A stretch of DNA of 64,000 nt from Chloroflexota bacterium (GCA_025454515.1 JALOOH010000005.1:84-64083), one strand, 5' to 3'. Counted from the stretch's first letter, positions 2,433 to 36,003 are shown. Notes: a model not told the origin generated them from the sequence alone. Numbers and translations: made by a program.

Positions 2433-2908
2433 GTTCGGTCCACCGAGGCGAATGGTACGGGCCGGTCGTCGGCGACGATGCGGATCTCCACCGGCGTGCC
2501 GAGCGCCTCGATCTCGCGGAGCGCCGCACGCTCCTCGTCGCTCGCGGAGATCGTGCGGTAGAGCGGACGCCTGCCGGGTCCGGCGCCGATCCCGCCCAGG
2601 TTCACGGCCCCGATCGGCACGCCCGCGCGGAGGAGCGCGAGCGCGGTCACGGGCGACTTCACGAGGACGAAGCACGCGTCGTGGGCGCTGGCCCGCGCCG
2701 TGACTCGCGGCGCCGCGGACGCGACGTCGAGGACCTCGACCGGCACGCCGATGGGCGCTGCGAGGGTGAGGACGTCCACGAGGAACGGATCGGCGGCGAC
2801 ACGGTCGTCCACGATGACGATGCGGTCGGCGCCGACCGCCCGGAGCCAGACGGCGACGACCTGTCCGTGGATGAGGCGGTCGTCCACCCGGACGAGGCGG
2901 AGTGTCAC
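2429..2908 (-). CDS. PTS mannose-family EIIB component
   Basis: MTLRLVRVDDRLIHGQVVAVW... matches the IIB(Man) phospho-histidine motif (RIDDRLIHGQV). 4-nt overlaps with the genes on both sides. Confidence 0.8.
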   Translation of the reverse strand: MTLRLVRVDDRLIHGQVVAVWLRAVGADRIVIVDDRVAADPFLVDVLTLAAPIGVPVEVLDVASAAPRVTARASAHDACFVLVKSPVTALALLRAGVPIGAVNLGGIGAGPGRRPLYRTISASDEERAALREIEALGTPVEIRIVADDRPVPFASVDRT

Positions 2909-3315
2909 GACCGGCCCCGCGCCGCAAGGCGGGCCGTGACGTCCACGATGCCGGCGCGTCCGGTCTCGACGAGCCGTCCCACCGCGCCGTCGCCGAGTCC
3001 GTCCGGGCTGGTGGCAGCCTCGACGAGCATCCCGAGCGTGACGCCCGCGAGGACGGTCGTGCCTGGGCGGTCGGCGGCGATCGTCGCCGCGACGATGCTC
3101 GGCGTGCCCCCGTCGAGGTCCGTGAGCACGAGGACGGGGCGCGCGTCCAGCTCGATCGCGCGGCGGAGCTCCACGGCGAACGTCTCCGGGGACTCCGACG
3201 GTGCGATCCCGACGGCCGTCACGTCGCGCAGCTCGCCGCAGATCAGTTCCGCGCTCCTGACGAGCGCGGCGGCGAGGCCGCTGTGCGCGGCGACGACGAT
3301 CCGGAAGTCGCGCAA
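2905..3315 (-). CDS. PTS mannose-family EIIA component
   Basis: ...RIVVAAHSGLAAALVRSAELI...VLVLTDLDGGTP matches IIA(Man) (IvxaHG...DL.GGSP). The track ORF extends to an ATG at 3357. I prefer the TTG at 3315, which is preceded by ggaggg with a 5-nt spacer. Confidence 0.7.
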   Translation of the reverse strand: MRDFRIVVAAHSGLAAALVRSAELICGELRDVTAVGIAPSESPETFAVELRRAIELDARPVLVLTDLDGGTPSIVAATIAADRPGTTVLAGVTLGMLVEAATSPDGLGDGAVGRLVETGRAGIVDVTARLAARGRS

Positions 3316-8673: not shown

Positions 8674-10431
8674 TCAGAACGGCTCGACGGTGTTCCAGTC
8701 GACCGTGGGATCGAGGGCACCCGGCAGCGAGGCCAGGCGCGTCCCCGTGGACACGAGCGGCAGGACGCGTGTGCCTTCACCCGCGCCCGCGTCGTACAGG
8801 GCCACGACGTCGGACCGGCCGTCCCCGTTCACGTCGGAGACGGTGAGCTTCGCGACGCCGAGCCGGAACCCCGTCGCGGTCGATCGGAAGACCTTCGGAT
8901 CGAACCCCTCGCCGTCCGACAGCAGGGCGGTCGCGACGACGCCGGTCGCCCCGTTCGCCGTCATGAGCAGGAGGTCCTCCCGGCCGTCCCGGTTCCAGTC
9001 GCCGGCGAGCTCGCGGGTCGTCCCGTCGCCCATGACGGCCCCGTCGCTCCACAGGTGCGGGTCCGAGAACACGCCTCCTCCGCGGCCCATGAGGACGTCC
9101 ACGCTGAAGGCGCGGGCTCCGTCGGAGGTGCCGGCGCTCCCGTCGGCCGTGACGAGGGCCAGGTCCACGCGGCCGTCGCCGTCGAAGTCGCCCGCGCGCA
9201 CGGCCTCGAGCGCGCCCGCATGGGGCCCGGCCCACCATCGATCGGGTCGCGCGAACGACGACCCGGTGGACGCGAGGACGTCGATCGCGAGGTCGCCGGT
9301 GGCCGGATCGTCCGACGCGAGGGCGACGTCGGCCCGGCCATCCCCCGTGAAGTCGGCGACGACCATCGCCGACGGGCCGAAGCCGGCCGCGTCCGCCGCG
9401 ACGGCGCCCGGCGTCCACCACGTGACCGGGGGCTGCAGCACCGTCTGCGTGGACGCCGCGTACATCGCGCTCGTGATCTCGGCCGGGTCCTCGGGGAGGC
9501 CCGCGCTGCTCATGCCGCCGTCCATGACGCGCGACACGGCGACCTCGCTGCCGCCGCCGGGTGCGCGGCGGGTGTACACGAGGTCCGTCCGCCCGTCGCC
9601 GTCCACGTCGCCCGTCCCCCGCAGCGAGGGGGACGCGACGTCGAGCATCACGGGCCATCCCTCGCCGGTCGAGGTCGCGCCGTCGTCCGCCGTCCGCAGT
9701 GTCGCGCCGCCGTAGATGCGGGCGGTGACGGTGCCGTCGGGCGCGGTGACGAGGGCGGGCACGTCCCCGTACCCGTCGCCGTCGAGGTCGTTGACGCCCA
9801 TGCGGACGATCGAGATGCTCTCGCCGTAGTAGATCCGCAGGATCTCCTCGGCCGTCTTCCCCTCGCGGGCGCACCGCGCGGCGCTCTTCTGCATGAGCCG
9901 CACGCCGTTCGCGTTCACCCCGCACGCCACGTCCGAGCCGGCCCAGTAGCCGGTGGAGACGAACCGGCCGCCGCGGCGGATCGAGAGCGACCACGTCCGC
10001 GCGACCGCGCCGATGTGGGACTGCGCCGGCGTCTTGGAGAGCGGCAGGTACCACTGGTCGTTGCCGTTGTCCACGATGTCGTAGCAGGCGCCGCCGCTGG
10101 AGCCGCCGCGCCAGTTCATCGCGCGGTACCAGGCGTACTGCTTGACCGCGACCGCGCCGGCCTCCATGGCAGCGGCGGGCGCGCCCGCCCCGAACTCGGC
10201 GGCCATGACCAGCTCGACGTACGGGCGGAACGGCACCTCCTGGACCCGGCCTGCGTCGGGTCCGAGGGTGCGAAGAACGCGGATCGTATCGGGGGGGATG
10301 GATTCGCTCGTCCAACCGGTGCAGACGGAACGGGCGAGGGTCGGGGCTGGGACGAGCACCGAGCCGGTCGCGAATACGACTCCGGAGAGCGTCACCGCGA
10401 CGACCATCCCCGCCGCCAGGCGGCGGAGCAT
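8674..10431 (-). CDS. secreted SpoIID/LytB-domain protein fused to FG-GAP/integrin-alpha-like Ca-binding repeats
   Basis: Signal peptide MLRRLAAGMVVAVTLSGVVFATGS. SpoIID-like block FRPYVELVMAAEFGAGAPAAAMEAGAVAVKQYAWYRA. Seven or more DxDGDG(R/Y)xD repeats (DLDGDGYGD, DVDGDGRTDLV, DFTGDGRADVAL, DFDGDGRVDLAL, DWNRDGREDLLL, DVNGDGRSDVVAL). Confidence 0.75.
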   Translation of the reverse strand: MLRRLAAGMVVAVTLSGVVFATGSVLVPAPTLARSVCTGWTSESIPPDTIRVLRTLGPDAGRVQEVPFRPYVELVMAAEFGAGAPAAAMEAGAVAVKQYAWYRAMNWRGGSSGGACYDIVDNGNDQWYLPLSKTPAQSHIGAVARTWSLSIRRGGRFVSTGYWAGSDVACGVNANGVRLMQKSAARCAREGKTAEEILRIYYGESISIVRMGVNDLDGDGYGDVPALVTAPDGTVTARIYGGATLRTADDGATSTGEGWPVMLDVASPSLRGTGDVDGDGRTDLVYTRRAPGGGSEVAVSRVMDGGMSSAGLPEDPAEITSAMYAASTQTVLQPPVTWWTPGAVAADAAGFGPSAMVVADFTGDGRADVALASDDPATGDLAIDVLASTGSSFARPDRWWAGPHAGALEAVRAGDFDGDGRVDLALVTADGSAGTSDGARAFSVDVLMGRGGGVFSDPHLWSDGAVMGDGTTRELAGDWNRDGREDLLLMTANGATGVVATALLSDGEGFDPKVFRSTATGFRLGVAKLTVSDVNGDGRSDVVALYDAGAGEGTRVLPLVSTGTRLASLPGALDPTVDWNTVEPF

Positions 10432-10842
10432 GGGTGAACGTTACACGGCGGTGGTGCGTTCTGTCCACCGTGCCGGACGTGTCGGGCGCCTTCGCCACAC
10501 ATCGATCGCGAGCGAACCGAGGGGCTCCCCCAGGGCGCGTAGCCGGGCGCCCGGTGGGCCCGGGCGCGACTGTCGCGTCCTCCCACGGGCGGAGGGCGAG
10601 CCGAGGGAGACCGGGGCCGGGCTCCGTGTCGGCCATTTCCGGGACTCCCCGGCGTCCGTCCGATCCGTCGGCTCGGCGGGCCGTGGAGCGTCGGGCTCGG
10701 CGCGGCGTGGACGAGGTGTCGCGGCAGCCGCCGCGCGAGCGGCGGGCGGGGGCGGGCTGGATCGTTCGGCGGCAGCGGTGGGCGGACGGCGGCGGTCGGC
10801 GGCAGCGGCGGGCCGTCGGCGGCGTGGTCCGCCCCGTCGTCA

Positions 10843-11121
10843 GCACGTGATCTTCGCCACGTGAAAGGAACCGGCGCCGATCTTCGCCACGTGAAAGGAA
10901 CAGGCCCCCCGCCTTCGCTGGGTGCGCGTGCACGGCATGCCCGGGCGCCTGTCCCGACCGCGGATCGTCCGGTCCACGGTCGGCGGGGCGGTCCCGAGTG
11001 GGTCCTCTTCACGTGGTGCACAGGATCGGCATGCGGCGCGCGGCGCCGTGGTGGGCGACGTCGGTTGCTTGCACCTGGTGAAGACGCGCTGCCACGGGCC
11101 GCCCCCACGTGCACCCGCTGA
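10843..11121. promoter_or_regulatory. cluster of five CACGTG palindromes, including two tandem 24-nt direct repeats, in an ~800-bp non-coding island
   Basis: gatcttcgccacgtgaaaggaac occurs twice about 30 nt apart (10848-10871 and 10878-10901). Further CACGTG sites lie near 10846, 11010 and 11116. No credible ORF on either strand between 10432 and 11227. Confidence 0.4.
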
Positions 11122-11130
11122 CGAAGGAGC

Positions 11131-11162
11131 CCGCGCGACGCACGTCGCGCGGGCTCCGTTGA
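11131..11162 (-). terminator. perfect 15-bp stem hairpin, likely terminator of the 11228-11695 gene
   Basis: ggagcccgcgcgacg-ca-cgtcgcgcgggctcc lies 65 nt downstream of the minus-strand stop at 11228. Confidence 0.6.
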
Positions 11163-11227
11163 TGGCACGGGAGGGCGGTCGCGATCGGCCCGTCCCGCCC
11201 CCCACTGACGCGGCCGTCAGGCGGCCG

Positions 11228-11695
11228 TCACGGGTTCGCCTGGGCCGGGAGCGGTGTCGGCCGCGGCCTCGGCACGACCACCAGGTCCGCGACGGGCGTG
11301 CCGCCCGTGAGGTCGCTGATGACGAGCACCTTGTCGCCCACCGCGAGCTTGGAGACGTCGCTCTTCACGCCGTTCTTCCGGACCCTCGTCTGGGCGTCGG
11401 TGCCGACGGTCTGGTTCCCGCCGGGCTCGGCGATGGTGATGGTGCCGCCCCCGACGGCCGCGATCGTGCCGCGGTCGATCTGAAGCGTCACCAGCGTCCC
11501 GTCCGGCCGCTGGACGACCACCGTGCCGTGGACGATGTGGCGGGCGAGCTTCTCGATCGCGCCGGCCTTCGCGGCCTTGACGGCCTTGGTCGGTGCCGGC
11601 TGGGCCGCGGTGGCGGTCCCCGCCGCGACGATGCCGAGGGTGAGCAGCGCCGCGACGACGAGTGCGATGCGGCCGCCGTGCCTGTGCATGTGCAT
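11228..11695 (-). CDS. small secreted protein of unknown function
   Basis: MHMHRHGGRIALVVAALLTLGIVAAGTATAAQP... is a signal peptide. The mature part is a non-repetitive beta-rich sequence (TVVVQRPDGTLVTLQIDRGTIAAVGGGTITIAEPGG...). RBS gggagg. The second ATG may be the real start. Confidence 0.65.
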   Translation of the reverse strand: MHMHRHGGRIALVVAALLTLGIVAAGTATAAQPAPTKAVKAAKAGAIEKLARHIVHGTVVVQRPDGTLVTLQIDRGTIAAVGGGTITIAEPGGNQTVGTDAQTRVRKNGVKSDVSKLAVGDKVLVISDLTGGTPVADLVVVPRPRPTPLPAQANP

Positions 11696-11846: not shown

Positions 11847-12299
11847 TCAGGCGCCCCCCGACGCGCCGCCGGAGCCCCCCGACGCGTCCCCCGCGCCGCC
11901 GGAGCCCCCCGACGCGTCCCCCGCGTCCCCCGCGCCGCCGGCGCCGCCGGCGTCGTCCGTGCCCGCGGCCACGCCTGCCTCGTCGTCGGCCGGCTGGTCC
12001 GGCACGGCCGTCGCGCGCCCGTCGACGATGCGCGGCGACCGCCCGCGGCCGAGTCGCGCGACGGTCCGGGCGACGGCCTCCGGCGCCCCGATGAAGGGGA
12101 GGACGTACAGGACGAGGAGTGCCGGGATGACCGCCCGGGTCCCCGCGCGGAAGAGGACGGCGACGACGGCGAGCGCCACCAGGACGGCCAGGTACACGGC
12201 GAGCGGCGCGGGGCGCCAGCCGGCGAGGTAGAGGCGGCGCGTGGGGACCAGCGCGAGTGCGAACGCGACGAGCGCGACGCCGAGGACTGCCCAGGTCAC
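11847..12299 (-). CDS. small membrane protein with C-terminal Gly/Ala/Asp/Ser repeat tail
   Basis: GTG start. Three hydrophobic helices (VTWAVLGVALVAFALALV, LAVYLAVLVALAVVAVLF, VIPALLVLYVLPFIGAP). The tail (GGAGDASGGSGG)x is encoded by 30-bp tandem repeats. The opposite-strand Pro/Arg-rich ORF was rejected. Confidence 0.45.
   Translation of the reverse strand: MTWAVLGVALVAFALALVPTRRLYLAGWRPAPLAVYLAVLVALAVVAVLFRAGTRAVIPALLVLYVLPFIGAPEAVARTVARLGRGRSPRIVDGRATAVPDQPADDEAGVAAGTDDAGGAGGAGDAGDASGGSGGAGDASGGSGGASGGA
11850..11950. repeat. ~30-bp tandem repeat (about 3 copies) inside the 3' end of the 11847-12299 gene
   Basis: gacgcgtcccccgcgccgccggagcccccc is repeated head-to-tail. Confidence 0.6.
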
Positions 12300-22310: not shown

Positions 22311-23741
22311 ATGAGTGCCGGGATCGGCAGCACGAAGCGCATGTTCGGCGCGTTCGCGGTGATCGCGATCGTCGCCGCGGCATGCTCGAGCAGCGGGGCC
22401 ACGACCGCGCCGGAGGCCACGACGGGGGCCACCACGGCACCCGTCGCCACGGAGGCCGGCGGCGCGACCCAGGCTCCGCCCGCGGGCGAGCCCGTGGCCG
22501 TCTGCGAGCTCGCGTACTACACGGGCGAGTTCGCGCCGTACGGCCCCGCGCTGACGGCGGACGTGGTGTTCCCGATCAAGGAGATCATCAACCTCGACCC
22601 GCCGCTCGGCCGGACGTGGGAGACGTACCACGAGGACCTCGGCACGGTCGGCGAGGCCCAGGCCGCACGCACGTGCCTCGAGAAGCACGGGGCGGAGGTC
22701 GTCGTCAGCATCGCCCACGGGTACCGCACCTACCGTGACTTCATGATGGACTACTGGCAGGAGAACGACTCCCCGCTCGGTCCGTCCGTCCACGGCGGCG
22801 CGATCCCCGGCAACCTCGGCGGCAAGGGCGCCGAGCCGATCTTCCGCGCCCAGGGCCTCGACGAGGGCCTCGGGACGTTCGGGAGCCTCTATGCGCAGTC
22901 GATCGGCGCGAAGAAGGTCGTGATCTTCGCCACGCAGGTCGAAGGCTTCCAGGGGGCGGCCGACGCCGCCGAGAAGTCGGCCGAGCTCCTCGGCCTCGAG
23001 GTCATCGCGCGCATCGACGAGCAGCCGGAGCAGCCGTCGTACGCGGCGGTCGCCCAGAAGATCGCCGACCTCAACCCGGACGCCGTCATCGTCCAGGCTG
23101 GCTCGGTCGAGTCCGCGACCCTCATCAAGCAGGCGGCGGAGAAGGGCATCTCGCTCAACTGGATCGGCGAGACCGGCTGGAGCCAGGCCGAGTTCCTCAA
23201 CACGCTCGGCACCGAGCCGATCGCGTCGCAGAAGGGGATCGGCTACACGAACTTCTCGCCCAACACGGACACGCCCGCGTGGACCTTCTACCAGCCGCTC
23301 CGCGACGACTGGGTCGCGAAGTCCGGCGTGGATCCCACGACCTACTACGGCGCCGACAACCCCTACGCGTACTCGACGTACGACCTCCTCGTCCAGACGG
23401 CCCTGGCCGTCGAGGCGGCCGGCTCGTACAAGGCGAGCGAGTGGGCGCCCGCGATGTTCAAGGTCGGCGACGGCCCCGGCGAGATCTGCTACACGTACGC
23501 GGACTGCCTCGCCCTCATCCGGGCCGGCAAGGACGTCGACTACGAGGGCGTCACCGGCCCCGGCTCGTACACTGAGGGCGGCGTCAACGCCATCACCCCG
23601 TCCTACACGCCGCTCGGCGCGGACGGGAAGGCGGGCGCGCCGGTGCTCCTCGACGCGAACCTGTACCTCGACATCCTCGACCAGATCAAGACGACCGCGA
23701 AGTGCGATCCGGAGAACCCGCCGAACAAGTGCGAATGGTGA
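22311..23741 (+). CDS. ABC transporter substrate-binding lipoprotein (Leu/Ile/Val-binding family)
   Basis: RBS gaggagg, then ATG. Lipobox FAVIAIVAAAC. Type-I periplasmic binding fold pattern. The binding protein is encoded last in this operon. Confidence 0.8.
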   Translation: MSAGIGSTKRMFGAFAVIAIVAAACSSSGATTAPEATTGATTAPVATEAGGATQAPPAGEPVAVCELAYYTGEFAPYGPALTADVVFPIKEIINLDPPLGRTWETYHEDLGTVGEAQAARTCLEKHGAEVVVSIAHGYRTYRDFMMDYWQENDSPLGPSVHGGAIPGNLGGKGAEPIFRAQGLDEGLGTFGSLYAQSIGAKKVVIFATQVEGFQGAADAAEKSAELLGLEVIARIDEQPEQPSYAAVAQKIADLNPDAVIVQAGSVESATLIKQAAEKGISLNWIGETGWSQAEFLNTLGTEPIASQKGIGYTNFSPNTDTPAWTFYQPLRDDWVAKSGVDPTTYYGADNPYAYSTYDLLVQTALAVEAAGSYKASEWAPAMFKVGDGPGEICYTYADCLALIRAGKDVDYEGVTGPGSYTEGGVNAITPSYTPLGADGKAGAPVLLDANLYLDILDQIKTTAKCDPENPPNKCEW

Positions 23742-26573: not shown

Positions 26574-27653
26574 TCACCGCCGGCCACCGTCGATCGGGCC
26601 GGCCGGTGCGCCGTTCACAGCAGCGCCGGCCACGCGCGACGTCCCGCCGCCGGCCACGCGCGACGTCCCGCCGCCGGCCGCCCCGACGAGCTCGAGGAAC
26701 CGCTCCTCGAGGGTCCCGCCCGCGGCGCGCATCTCCACGAGGAGGAGGTCGCGGCCGCGGCACCAGTCGGCGAGCGCCGCGACGAGCCGCGGGGTCGGCT
26801 CGACGCCGTCCACGCGGTACGCGCCCCCCGGCCCATCCTCCTCGACCTGCGGCGCACCGCCCGTCGAGCCCATGGCCGCGAGTGCCCCGGCGAGCTCGAC
26901 GCGCCCGGCCGCCGAGAGCACGCCGGCCACGCGGAAGCGCAGCCGCCGCCGCGCGCCCGCCATCAGCTCGTCGGGGGTCCCGAGCGCGACGAGGCGTCCG
27001 CCGTCCACGATCGCGATCCGGTCCGCCAGGCGCTCGAGGTCGACCAGCTCGTGGGTCGTGAGCAGCACGCTCACCCCGGAGTCTCGGAGATCGGACACGA
27101 CATCCCGCGTGGCCGCCTTCGCCTGCGGATCCATCCCCGCGGTCGGCTCGTCGAGGATCGCGACCTCCGGCCGGCCCACCAGCGCGATCGCGAGCGCGAG
27201 GCGCTGGCGCTCGCCGCCGGAGAGGACCTTCACCCGGCGCATCGCGGCGTCCGTCAGCCCGACCCGCCCGAGGAGCGCGTCGGGGTCCTCCGGGTCGCGG
27301 AAGAACGAGGCGTAGAGGCGCAGGATCTCCCCGGCGCGCACCTGTGGTGGGAGGCCGCCCTGCTGGAGCATGATCCCGACCCGCGGCCGGAGCGCGCGCG
27401 CGTCACGGTACGGATCCAGCCCGAGCACCCGGACCGACCCGCCGTCGGGCCGCCGATACCCCTCGACGATCTCCACGGTCGTGGTCTTGCCAGCGCCGTT
27501 CGGGCCGAGGAGCCCCAGGATCTCGCCGCGGCCGACGTCGAGGCTCAGGCCGTCGACGACCGCGCGCCCGTCGTACCGCTTCACCAGGTCGCGAACGGCG
27601 ACCGCGACGCCCGCGCCGGACGCGCTCGCCGGGCCCCGGCCCGGCGACGTCAC
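26574..27653 (-). CDS. ABC transporter ATP-binding protein (DrrA/NosF-like, ABC-2 family) with repeat-containing C-terminal tail
   Basis: GTG start overlapping the tlpA-like stop (GTGA). Walker A GLLGPNGAGKTT, LSGGERQRLALA, ILDEPTAGMD. The C-terminus GGGTSRVAGGGTSRVAG is encoded by a 24-bp tandem duplication. Confidence 0.8.
   Translation of the reverse strand: MTSPGRGPASASGAGVAVAVRDLVKRYDGRAVVDGLSLDVGRGEILGLLGPNGAGKTTTVEIVEGYRRPDGGSVRVLGLDPYRDARALRPRVGIMLQQGGLPPQVRAGEILRLYASFFRDPEDPDALLGRVGLTDAAMRRVKVLSGGERQRLALAIALVGRPEVAILDEPTAGMDPQAKAATRDVVSDLRDSGVSVLLTTHELVDLERLADRIAIVDGGRLVALGTPDELMAGARRRLRFRVAGVLSAAGRVELAGALAAMGSTGGAPQVEEDGPGGAYRVDGVEPTPRLVAALADWCRGRDLLLVEMRAAGGTLEERFLELVGAAGGGTSRVAGGGTSRVAGAAVNGAPAGPIDGGRR
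26616..26670. repeat. 24-bp tandem direct repeat (2.3 copies) within the 3' end of the ABC ATPase gene
   Basis: cggccacgcgcgacgtcccgccgc repeated head-to-tail. Confidence 0.6.
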
Positions 27654-35316: not shown

Positions 35317-36003
35317 GTGCGTCAGACCAGCCCCACCCCGACACGGCGATCCGCGCCCCCGCCGGCCTCCGCATCGACCCGGCACGCGGCGTCGCCGCGG
35401 GCTGGCCTGAGGGTCGCCTCCATCCTCTCGGCCGCGGCCGCGACGGTCGCCGTCACCGCGGTCATGCTCGCCGGCTGCGCGGCCGGCCCCACGCCGCCGA
35501 CGCCACCGATCTCCCCGGGCACGGCGACGAGCCCGCGCGAGGTGAACGTCATCCTGAAGGACTACCAGTACATCCCCGACGGCCTCGATCTCGTGCCGGG
35601 AGAGACGGTCCTCTTCCACTTCGTGAACGGCGGGCTGGCGGTCCACGAGGCGATCATCGGCGACATGGCCACACAGGAGGCCTGGGAGGAGGCGGAGGCC
35701 CTCCACGCCGACCCGCCGCCCGGGCCGACGCCGGTCGTCACGGTGCCCGTCGGCCTGGAGGGGTTCCGCGTGGTCGTCGAGTCGGGCGAGCGCAAGGACG
35801 TGCGCTGGACCGTGCCGACCGAGATCCCATCGCCGCTCATCCTCGGGTGCCACATCCCCGGTCACTGGGCCCGTGGGATGCAGGCCCCGATCCGGCTGGT
35901 CGTCGCGGGGCAGAGCCCGGCGACCGTCACGTCCACGCCGTCGCCCCGGGCCGCCGGCACGCCCGCGCCGATCGCGACGACGGCGCCGCCGGACGTGCCG
36001 TAG
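35317..36003 (+). CDS. plastocyanin/azurin-like blue-copper lipoprotein
   Basis: Lipobox [10 protein letters not shown]. Cupredoxin ligands H...[13 protein letters not shown] (Cys-x2-His-x4-Met). Pro/Thr-rich N- and C-terminal linkers. Confidence 0.7.

Follow-up and report, generated by a model that had tools for sequence, protein, structure and literature searches.

What occupies the non-coding island between the SpoIID/FG-GAP gene and the DUF5666 gene of this Chloroflexota genome, and does its cluster of CACGTG palindromes form an operator array for a dimeric regulator, as the preliminary description proposed? We analysed the island within the window, i.e. the whole stretch of 64,000 nucleotides (G+C content ~75%), and against related loci. 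Three metagenomes of JGI and two metagenome assemblies of NCBI contain contigs identical or near-identical to this locus. In a 'Chloroflexi bacterium' MAG, the two flanking genes encode MCU0504295.1 and MCU0504296.1; as these are numbered consecutively, no protein-coding gene was annotated between the two. The 800-bp island indeed lies between the SpoIID/FG-GAP gene and a hairpin-terminated gene, as had been described (Table 1).

The claim that neither strand encodes a protein-like ORF was borne out. A third-position GC signal, which reaches 0.94–0.95 in the neighbouring genes, is absent from 10440–11220, all ORFs of the island translate to Arg/Pro-rich junk, and none has a Pfam match at E up to 1. 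Homologues of these ORFs were sought among 5.8 billion and 1.84 billion proteins and none was found save one, a low-complexity match with E = 7e-4. A coding gene or pseudogene was therefore rejected for lack of a third-position GC signal, Pfam match or real homologues. Public gene calls place a 266-aa ORF (L002, 1–801) and 62-aa ORFs (L016, 2805–2993; L017, 843–1031) over the island. These calls are almost certainly spurious, given their junk composition and lack of homologues.

A custom scan identified the SpoIID promoter as the sole sigma-70-like match of the region and found no such promoter inside the insert described below. The promoter consists of TGGACA (10467–10462), an 18-nt spacer and TAACGT (10443–10438), followed by TCACCC and the ATG (10431). 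The arrangement TGGACA-N17/18-TAACGT-N6-ATG is near-invariant across five relatives (alignment A1), in which the conserved stretch reads GTGGACAG...TGTAACGTTCACCCATG. The spacer of the window is one base longer than in all relatives. Judged by its promoter–ATG spacing, the SpoIID mRNA is probably leaderless. On the other side of the island, the DUF5666 terminator hairpin is homologous in L012, L008, L013 and L016 and near-identical in L012; it is host DNA and lies outside the insert.

Table 1. Features of the island and its surroundings, in coordinates of the window.
Feature	Position	Strand	Details
SpoIID/FG-GAP gene	8674–10431	minus	
SpoIID/FG-GAP core promoter and start codon	10429–10467	minus	Near-invariant in the relatives of alignment A1
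Lineage-specific insertion, ~636 bp	10490–11125		Between promoter-proximal DNA and terminator hairpin
G-rich filler (C-rich on the minus strand), low complexity	10490–10830		Tandem repeats 10666–10711 and 10746–10824
Outer imperfect inverted repeat, left arm (GCCCCGTCGTCAGCACGTG)	10831–10849	plus	Pair I6; contains the CACGTG at 10844
Core in common with the sister lineage, ~260 bp	10846–11105		Colinear with L016 and L017; all four sites and central region
Site S1	10851–10872	plus	TCTTCGC-CAC-GTGAAAG, then GAACC; CACGTG at 10858
Site S2, tandem twin of S1	10881–10902	plus	CACGTG at 10888
Central imperfect palindrome (CCGACCGCGGATCG / CGGTCCACGGTCGG)	10954–10983		Pair I17
Site S3, inverted	11001–11022	minus	TGTGCAC-CAC-GTGAAGA, then GGACC; CACGTG at 11010
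Site S4, inverted	11063–11084	minus	TCTTCAC-CAG-GTGCAAG, then CAACC; without CACGTG
Outer imperfect inverted repeat, right arm	11112–11130	plus	Pair I6; CACGTG at 11106 just inside
DUF5666 terminator hairpin	11126–11157	minus	15-bp perfect stem, 2-nt loop (pair I4)
CGACCGC, switch point to IS-like terminal sequence	11175–11181		Tail of L005, head of L002; L015 28–54 homologous
DUF5666 gene	11228–11695	minus	

The cluster of CACGTG sites reported in the preliminary description, with fewer than 0.1 expected, was reproduced. Five sites (10844, 10858, 10888, 11010 and 11106) lie within 268 bp of the island versus a local expectation of ~0.09, and the 64-kb window as a whole holds 21 versus 20.6 expected, i.e. 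chance level. Upon random placement of 21 sites, the probability of at least five within 268 bp anywhere is 3e-5 and that of at least four is 1.6e-3, values that have to be read with the five sites not being independent, as two share one tandem duplication and all five lie in paralogous repeat units. The direct repeat (GATCTTCGCCACGTGAAAGGAAC) is perfect as had been stated, with copies at 10849–10871 and 10879–10901, and the spacing of 30 nt was confirmed, as the repeat is nested in a 30-nt tandem unit with 28/30 matching positions; its length is 23 nt and not 24 nt. The G-rich tract described at 10740–10830 corresponds to an array detected by Tandem Repeats Finder at 10746–10824 (period 30, 2.7 copies, 80% matches). 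It is part of a G-rich filler that begins with CTTCGCCAC, the identical 9-mer being present inside S1 and S2. Fourteen short tandem arrays were counted in the 64 kb, of which several consist of 100% identical copies, and young tandem duplications seem to be frequent in this genome; 100% identical ones are located at 11862–11925 (30 nt) and 26624–26679 (24 nt).

CACGTG is not the real unit of the island. A mismatch-tolerant repeat search recovered a 22-nt unit in four copies, which cluster in a span of 234 bp (0.25 expected per 64 kb). The repeated element in it is a 17-bp palindrome, TCTTCAC-N3-GTGAAGA, with the half-sites TTCAC and GTGAA separated by a 3-nt spacer. Two copies are forward and two reverse, the starts of successive copies are 30, 125 and 62 bp apart, and S1 and S4 match at 18/22 positions. 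When a single mismatch was tolerated among the 10 core positions, the window gave five matches versus 0.17 expected, four of them in the island. The fifth, a weak match (TCCACTTCGTGAA, 35615–35627), and a 16-nt exact match to the island (CGTGATCTTCGCCACG, 22919–22934) lie within coding DNA and are probably due to chance. CACGTG arises where the N3 spacer is CAC or GTG by chance, its count is raised further by the 30-nt tandem duplication, and the two outer occurrences (10844 and 11106) belong to junction DNA without conservation in the sister lineage, so that the CACGTG cluster is a by-product. An E-box-like CACGTG site cluster was rejected as the sister lineage has one (L016) or two (L017) such sites versus five here, while all four palindromes persist. 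The proposal of sites for a dimeric regulator thus stands as far as repeated dimer-type sites are concerned, and falls for CACGTG as their unit. To judge by their symmetry, the four palindromes are of a kind that dimeric DNA-binding proteins would recognise.

Every copy in the window has one degraded half-site, e.g. the left one in S1 (TTCGC for TTCAC) and S3 and the right one in S4; the damaged versions are TTCGC (n = 2), TGCAC (n = 1) and GTGCA (n = 1). The four sites are enclosed by an outer inverted repeat, the arms of which are 19 nt long and 79% complementary (15/19), have TCGTCAGC in common, and include a left arm that is not conserved in L016 and L017. Global alignment of the two arms gave a z of only ~3.7 over shuffles. 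The pairing of the central palindrome is lost in L016.

Nine related loci from eight lineages were compared (L006–L014; SpoIID protein identity 55–90%), all of them recovered from uncultured Chloroflexota MAGs. All nine have the same gene order, terminator hairpin and leaderless-type promoter, and the distance from the DUF5666 stop to the SpoIID start is only 115–190 bp. Since hairpin and promoter are kept in this short gap, positions ~10490–11125 are extra DNA in the window lineage, with junctions set by eye against L012 and L008. The island is hence a presence/absence polymorphism at an otherwise conserved site, occupied in the island lineages and empty in nine loci. No target-site duplication was found at either junction in comparison with the empty sites of L012 and L008. 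The outer ends of the insert, CTTCGCCAC and CTTCGTCAG, match at 7/9 positions and are short and imperfect as terminal inverted repeats. Immediately upstream of the island, the relatives differ in their genes: in L013, an extra Peptidase_S51 gene (2503–3279) separates the 148-aa gene from the DUF5666 gene. Paired contigs of the same locus within one MAG bin each were observed for L006 and L008 (90–94% identity) and for L009 and L011 (98.6%), and this doubling in two bins indicates mixed strains or a large duplication.

The sites were found in just the window and the sister lineage (L016/L017) and are absent from 8/9 related lineages. They are positioned 385–650 bp upstream of the SpoIID promoter, the nearest (10851) being separated from the −35 box by ~385 bp. 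A cis-regulatory operator array of the SpoIID (or DUF5666) gene was rejected, as the sites are absent in eight related lineages that keep promoter and terminator and as no site lies within ~100 bp of a promoter. The island is therefore not an operator array for its neighbouring genes. Comparative alignment showed no conservation of the island in relatives apart from the sister L016/L017, and a motif search of the 64-kb window gave no occurrence beyond the weak match at 35615; these outcomes, the second of them for 64 kb, largely coincide with what the preliminary description had named as refuting it.

The sister lineage comprises L016 and L017, together with L015, and derives from ENA assemblies ERZ28614740 (L016 and L015) and ERZ15185986 (L017). 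Its core is colinear with the window from 11105 to 10846, and its site spacings of 62, 124–125 and 30 bp are as in the window. The sister sites read TCTTCAC-CAG-ATGAAAG, TCTTCAC-CAG-GTGAAGA, TCTTCAC-CAC-GTGAACG and TCTTCAC-CA(G/C)-GTGAACG. The S3 copy in L016 is a perfect 17-bp palindrome (TCTTCACCAGGTGAAGA, 47% G+C), and perfect TTCAC-N3-GTGAA is present in 3/4 sister sites versus 0/4 window sites. All eight copies of both lineages retain two-fold symmetry, with no more than one of the 10 core positions mismatched. The G-rich filler cannot be aligned to the sister lineage, where other GC-rich tandem repeats occupy this position. The core is a discrete unit with sharp borders in the divergence between window and L016. 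Within each lineage, S1 and S2 carry identical lineage-specific substitutions, suggesting that the tandem copies undergo gene conversion.

The island changes fast. Divergence of the core from L016 amounts to 19% (49/256), and four-fold sites diverge by 3.8% in the DUF5666 gene, 6.9% in the SpoIID gene (vs L015) and 9.0% in an MFS transporter gene. The core diverges faster than these synonymous sites, a contrast that may be overstated as the four-fold yardstick is itself constrained (95% G+C at third codon positions). The non-coding spacer between stop codon and hairpin has diverged from L016 by 10%, and the terminator hairpin by 3% (1/32 positions). Variable positions number 15/88 within the motifs and 34/168 elsewhere in the core, i.e. 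the motif is no better conserved.

Other mobile DNA has entered the same intergenic region. L005 and L002 belong to two further assemblies of the population from which the window derives. At CGACCGC, L005 (893–921) leaves the window sequence and continues with GCGGTCGTGTCCCCAGACTTGGTGTAACA, and L002 (1–11) joins it, arriving from ...TGGGACTTGAC; the same 7 nt are thus at the junction in both contigs. The L002 and L005 ends are mutually inverted copies (GTCRWGTCCC...GGTGTAACA, ~26 nt) and are homologous to L015 28–54, a stretch that in the sister lineage lies upstream of the SpoIID promoter at a distance of ~95 bp. The arrangement resembles an insertion sequence with ~26-bp terminal inverted repeats and a 7-bp target duplication, and the different placements suggest that it occupies different positions of the intergenic region in different populations. 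The 26-mer of the IS end, with up to three mismatches, was not found in the window. An invertible switch between 12-nt inverted repeats (10503–10514 and 11176–11187) was rejected, since the L002 and L005 ends do not match the inverted island and instead resemble IS ends. Contigs end at the island at 11124 (L004, the insert junction), at 10791 (L003, in the G-rich repeats), at the end of L005 and at the start of L002, and these four independent breaks fit repeats or population heterogeneity at the locus. In view of the IS-like ends and the contig breaks, the gap between terminator and promoter is a repeated landing site.

Searches for further copies of the island were negative. A second copy was found neither in the window nor in the related loci, nor by protein searches with the spurious ORFs. 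BLAST against plasmids and phages and two scans of viral contigs returned no match to the island. An exact 19-mer scan of metagenome contigs gave zero matches in a collection from which the source contig is absent too. A gapped scan of metagenomes for two palindromes returned 83 matches. Nearly all of these are unrelated tandem repeats of the sort that chance produces among tandem arrays, and extended similarity to the island was seen in none. In a search of the literature, the half-site pattern turned up in PCR primers only. No transposase, replication or recombinase gene adjoins the island.

Known systems resemble the island in part. The ends of IS21-, Tn7-, Mu- and Tn402-type elements carry repeated subterminal transposase-binding sites, and multi-copy status is a hallmark of mobile elements. 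In common with MITEs and collapsed transposon ends, the island is a short non-coding insert, present or absent among close lineages, in which 22-nt units point inward from both sides (two forward, two reverse), which is framed by an outer imperfect inverted repeat, and which occupies a spot struck by IS-like elements. It differs from them in that it has no target-site duplication, no second copy that was found and no cognate transposase, in that its unit is itself palindromic, which is unusual for transposase end sites, and in that its 340-bp G-rich part has no mirror partner.

Origin iterons reside inside the initiator gene in the lambda-O arrangement. Two unrelated metagenome contigs among the matches of the gapped scan, L076 (1521–1680) and L098 (2537–2600), have arrays of CTTCACC(A/T)GGTGAAG with a period of 21–22 nt inside phage replication-initiation O-like genes (Pfam HTH_36; phrog_270, 391 and 678), which resemble origin iterons of the lambda-O type. 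These arrays carry the same palindrome as the island, a resemblance that is maybe coincidental as the match was forced by the search pattern; by analogy, such palindromes could plausibly serve as sites for a dimeric winged-helix initiator. The arrays are direct repeats of 21-nt period within a gene, unlike the island with its 30/125/62-bp spacings, mixed orientation and lack of a gene, and tblastn of the O-like proteins against the island found nothing. Iterons of a plasmid or phage origin were rejected because there is no regular direct period of ~20–23 bp and no rep gene or relic of one.

The consensus of the ParB-binding site parS is TGTTNCACGTGAAACA. S1 and S2 contain CACGTGAAA, which is one parS half, and CACGTG is at the parS centre, whereas the symmetry centre of the island motif is offset from CACGTG and the sister lineage is mostly without it. 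A parS/ParB centromere was rejected as the window has no TGTTNCACGTGAAACA-like 16-bp palindrome within three mismatches; TTCACGTGAA, with up to one mismatch, was not found in the window either. REP, BIME and REPIN elements are similar in being short imperfect palindromes downstream of a terminator that alternate and are able to form a larger hairpin. REP families have tens to hundreds of copies per genome, and REP/REPIN was rejected as the island palindromes are confined to one 234-bp stretch of 64 kb. Lambdoid phage operators are 17 bp long with several per region, comparable to the several two-fold symmetric 17-bp sites in the short region of the island, which differs by the lack of flanking repressor or cro genes and of overlapping promoters and by sites that are much further apart. 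Among RNAs, a riboswitch or other known RNA was rejected after a scan with Rfam 15, which had been suggested in the preliminary description and matched no family in the island; the only match was that of the terminator hairpin to an miRNA model at 27.7 bits (gathering threshold 79). A group II intron, suggested by the position after the terminator and by size, was rejected as there is neither an Rfam intron match nor domain-V-like sequence.

Several other explanations can be weighed against these data. The gap could have grown as neutral filler that never bound a protein, a short seed having been multiplied by slippage, local duplication and inversion-duplication; the palindromes and the CACGTG sites would then be nothing more than copies of this seed. 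This would agree with the many short tandem arrays, several with identical copies, in the 64 kb, with the different GC-rich repeats that flank the core in the two lineages, and with the fast divergence of the core. It is unlikely, as a perfect 17-bp palindrome of 47% G+C, present four times in a 75%-G+C genome, is unexpected from local slippage, as a palindrome seed was detectable in none of eight empty-site lineages (shown for L012), and as the core is discrete and sharply bordered. We consider it slightly less probable still that the sites are a working operator array of a host dimeric regulator, which would act through an unrecognised internal promoter, through DNA looping to the SpoIID promoter or as a titrating decoy. 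Spacings near multiples of three helical turns (30, 62 and 125 bp), kept in both island lineages, and the identity of S1 and S2 within each lineage argue for such an array. Against it stand the absence of the sites from eight related lineages whose genes and promoter are the same, the distance of even the nearest site from the −35 box, the lack of a sigma-70-like promoter in the island and the single weak extra match in 64 kb, in addition to the degraded half-site in every window site and motif positions that are no more conserved than the spacers.

A lineage-specific structured RNA would take the form of an imperfect hairpin of ~250–300 nt on the plus strand that ends at hairpin 11126–11157. 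The 341-nt region folds into a long imperfect hairpin better than shuffled sequences (z = −4.5 for the plus and −3.5 for the minus strand), a score that says little as any DNA inverted repeat folds well. On the plus strand, 17/28 variable pairs are still paired, 14 of them via G-U wobble. Compensatory pairs number one (minus strand) or three (plus strand) versus 11–19 broken pairs in a comparison of two lineages only. For a structure that was itself derived from the two compared sequences, covariation contributed a term close to zero or unfavourable. The data neither favour nor refute the sRNA gene offered as an alternative in the preliminary description, and we regard such an RNA as improbable; no Rfam family matched and no promoter was found. 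Equally doubtful is that the 260-bp core is recently acquired and functional, be it as a previously undescribed cis platform for a dimeric protein or as a new long-hairpin RNA; it could then act as an orphan origin, centromere-like site or recombination site for a winged-helix/HTH protein encoded elsewhere. The four sites at identical spacing in both lineages and the concerted evolution of S1 and S2, which count against a relic, would also fit such current function.

Our preferred reading, to which we assign a probability of about 0.45, is that the island is a decaying, non-autonomous relic of a mobile or selfish element, or else a set of orphan sites for a dimeric protein, and that it came as a single non-coding insertion with four dimer-type sites. 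The outer inverted repeat and the long imperfect hairpin fold that frame the four sites speak for it, as do the short gap of the nine related loci, the equally spaced sites of the sister lineage, the high divergence of the core, the degraded half-sites, the clustering of the 22-nt copies, the landing of other mobile DNA in this region and the lack of a coding signal, Pfam or Rfam match and internal promoter. The missing target-site duplication, the short or imperfect terminal inverted repeats, the failure to find a second copy and the lack of an adjacent transposase, replication or recombinase gene tell against it. Such a relic would have arisen by a single insertion event in the common ancestor of the window lineage and the sister lineage, in which ~636 bp landed between the DUF5666 terminator hairpin and the −35 box of the SpoIID promoter. 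The palindromes may be transposase-binding sites, repeated at either end of a non-autonomous element that has collapsed; alternatively, the insert may be a piece of an origin or of an immunity region. The palindromes of the window lineage would now be decaying, because every window copy has one mutated half-site, and the element would presumably have no present function.

The island is a cautionary case, as its striking motif cluster (P ~3e-5) is the shadow of another palindrome in a young, fast-changing insertion rather than regulatory information for the adjacent cell-wall gene. What was found is genuine yet of an ordinary type, an orphan element that belongs to no family. The analysis defines such an element, with four copies of TCTTCAC-N3-GTGAAGA, in the poorly known high-GC Chloroflexota, where the gap between this terminator and promoter repeatedly collects mobile DNA.
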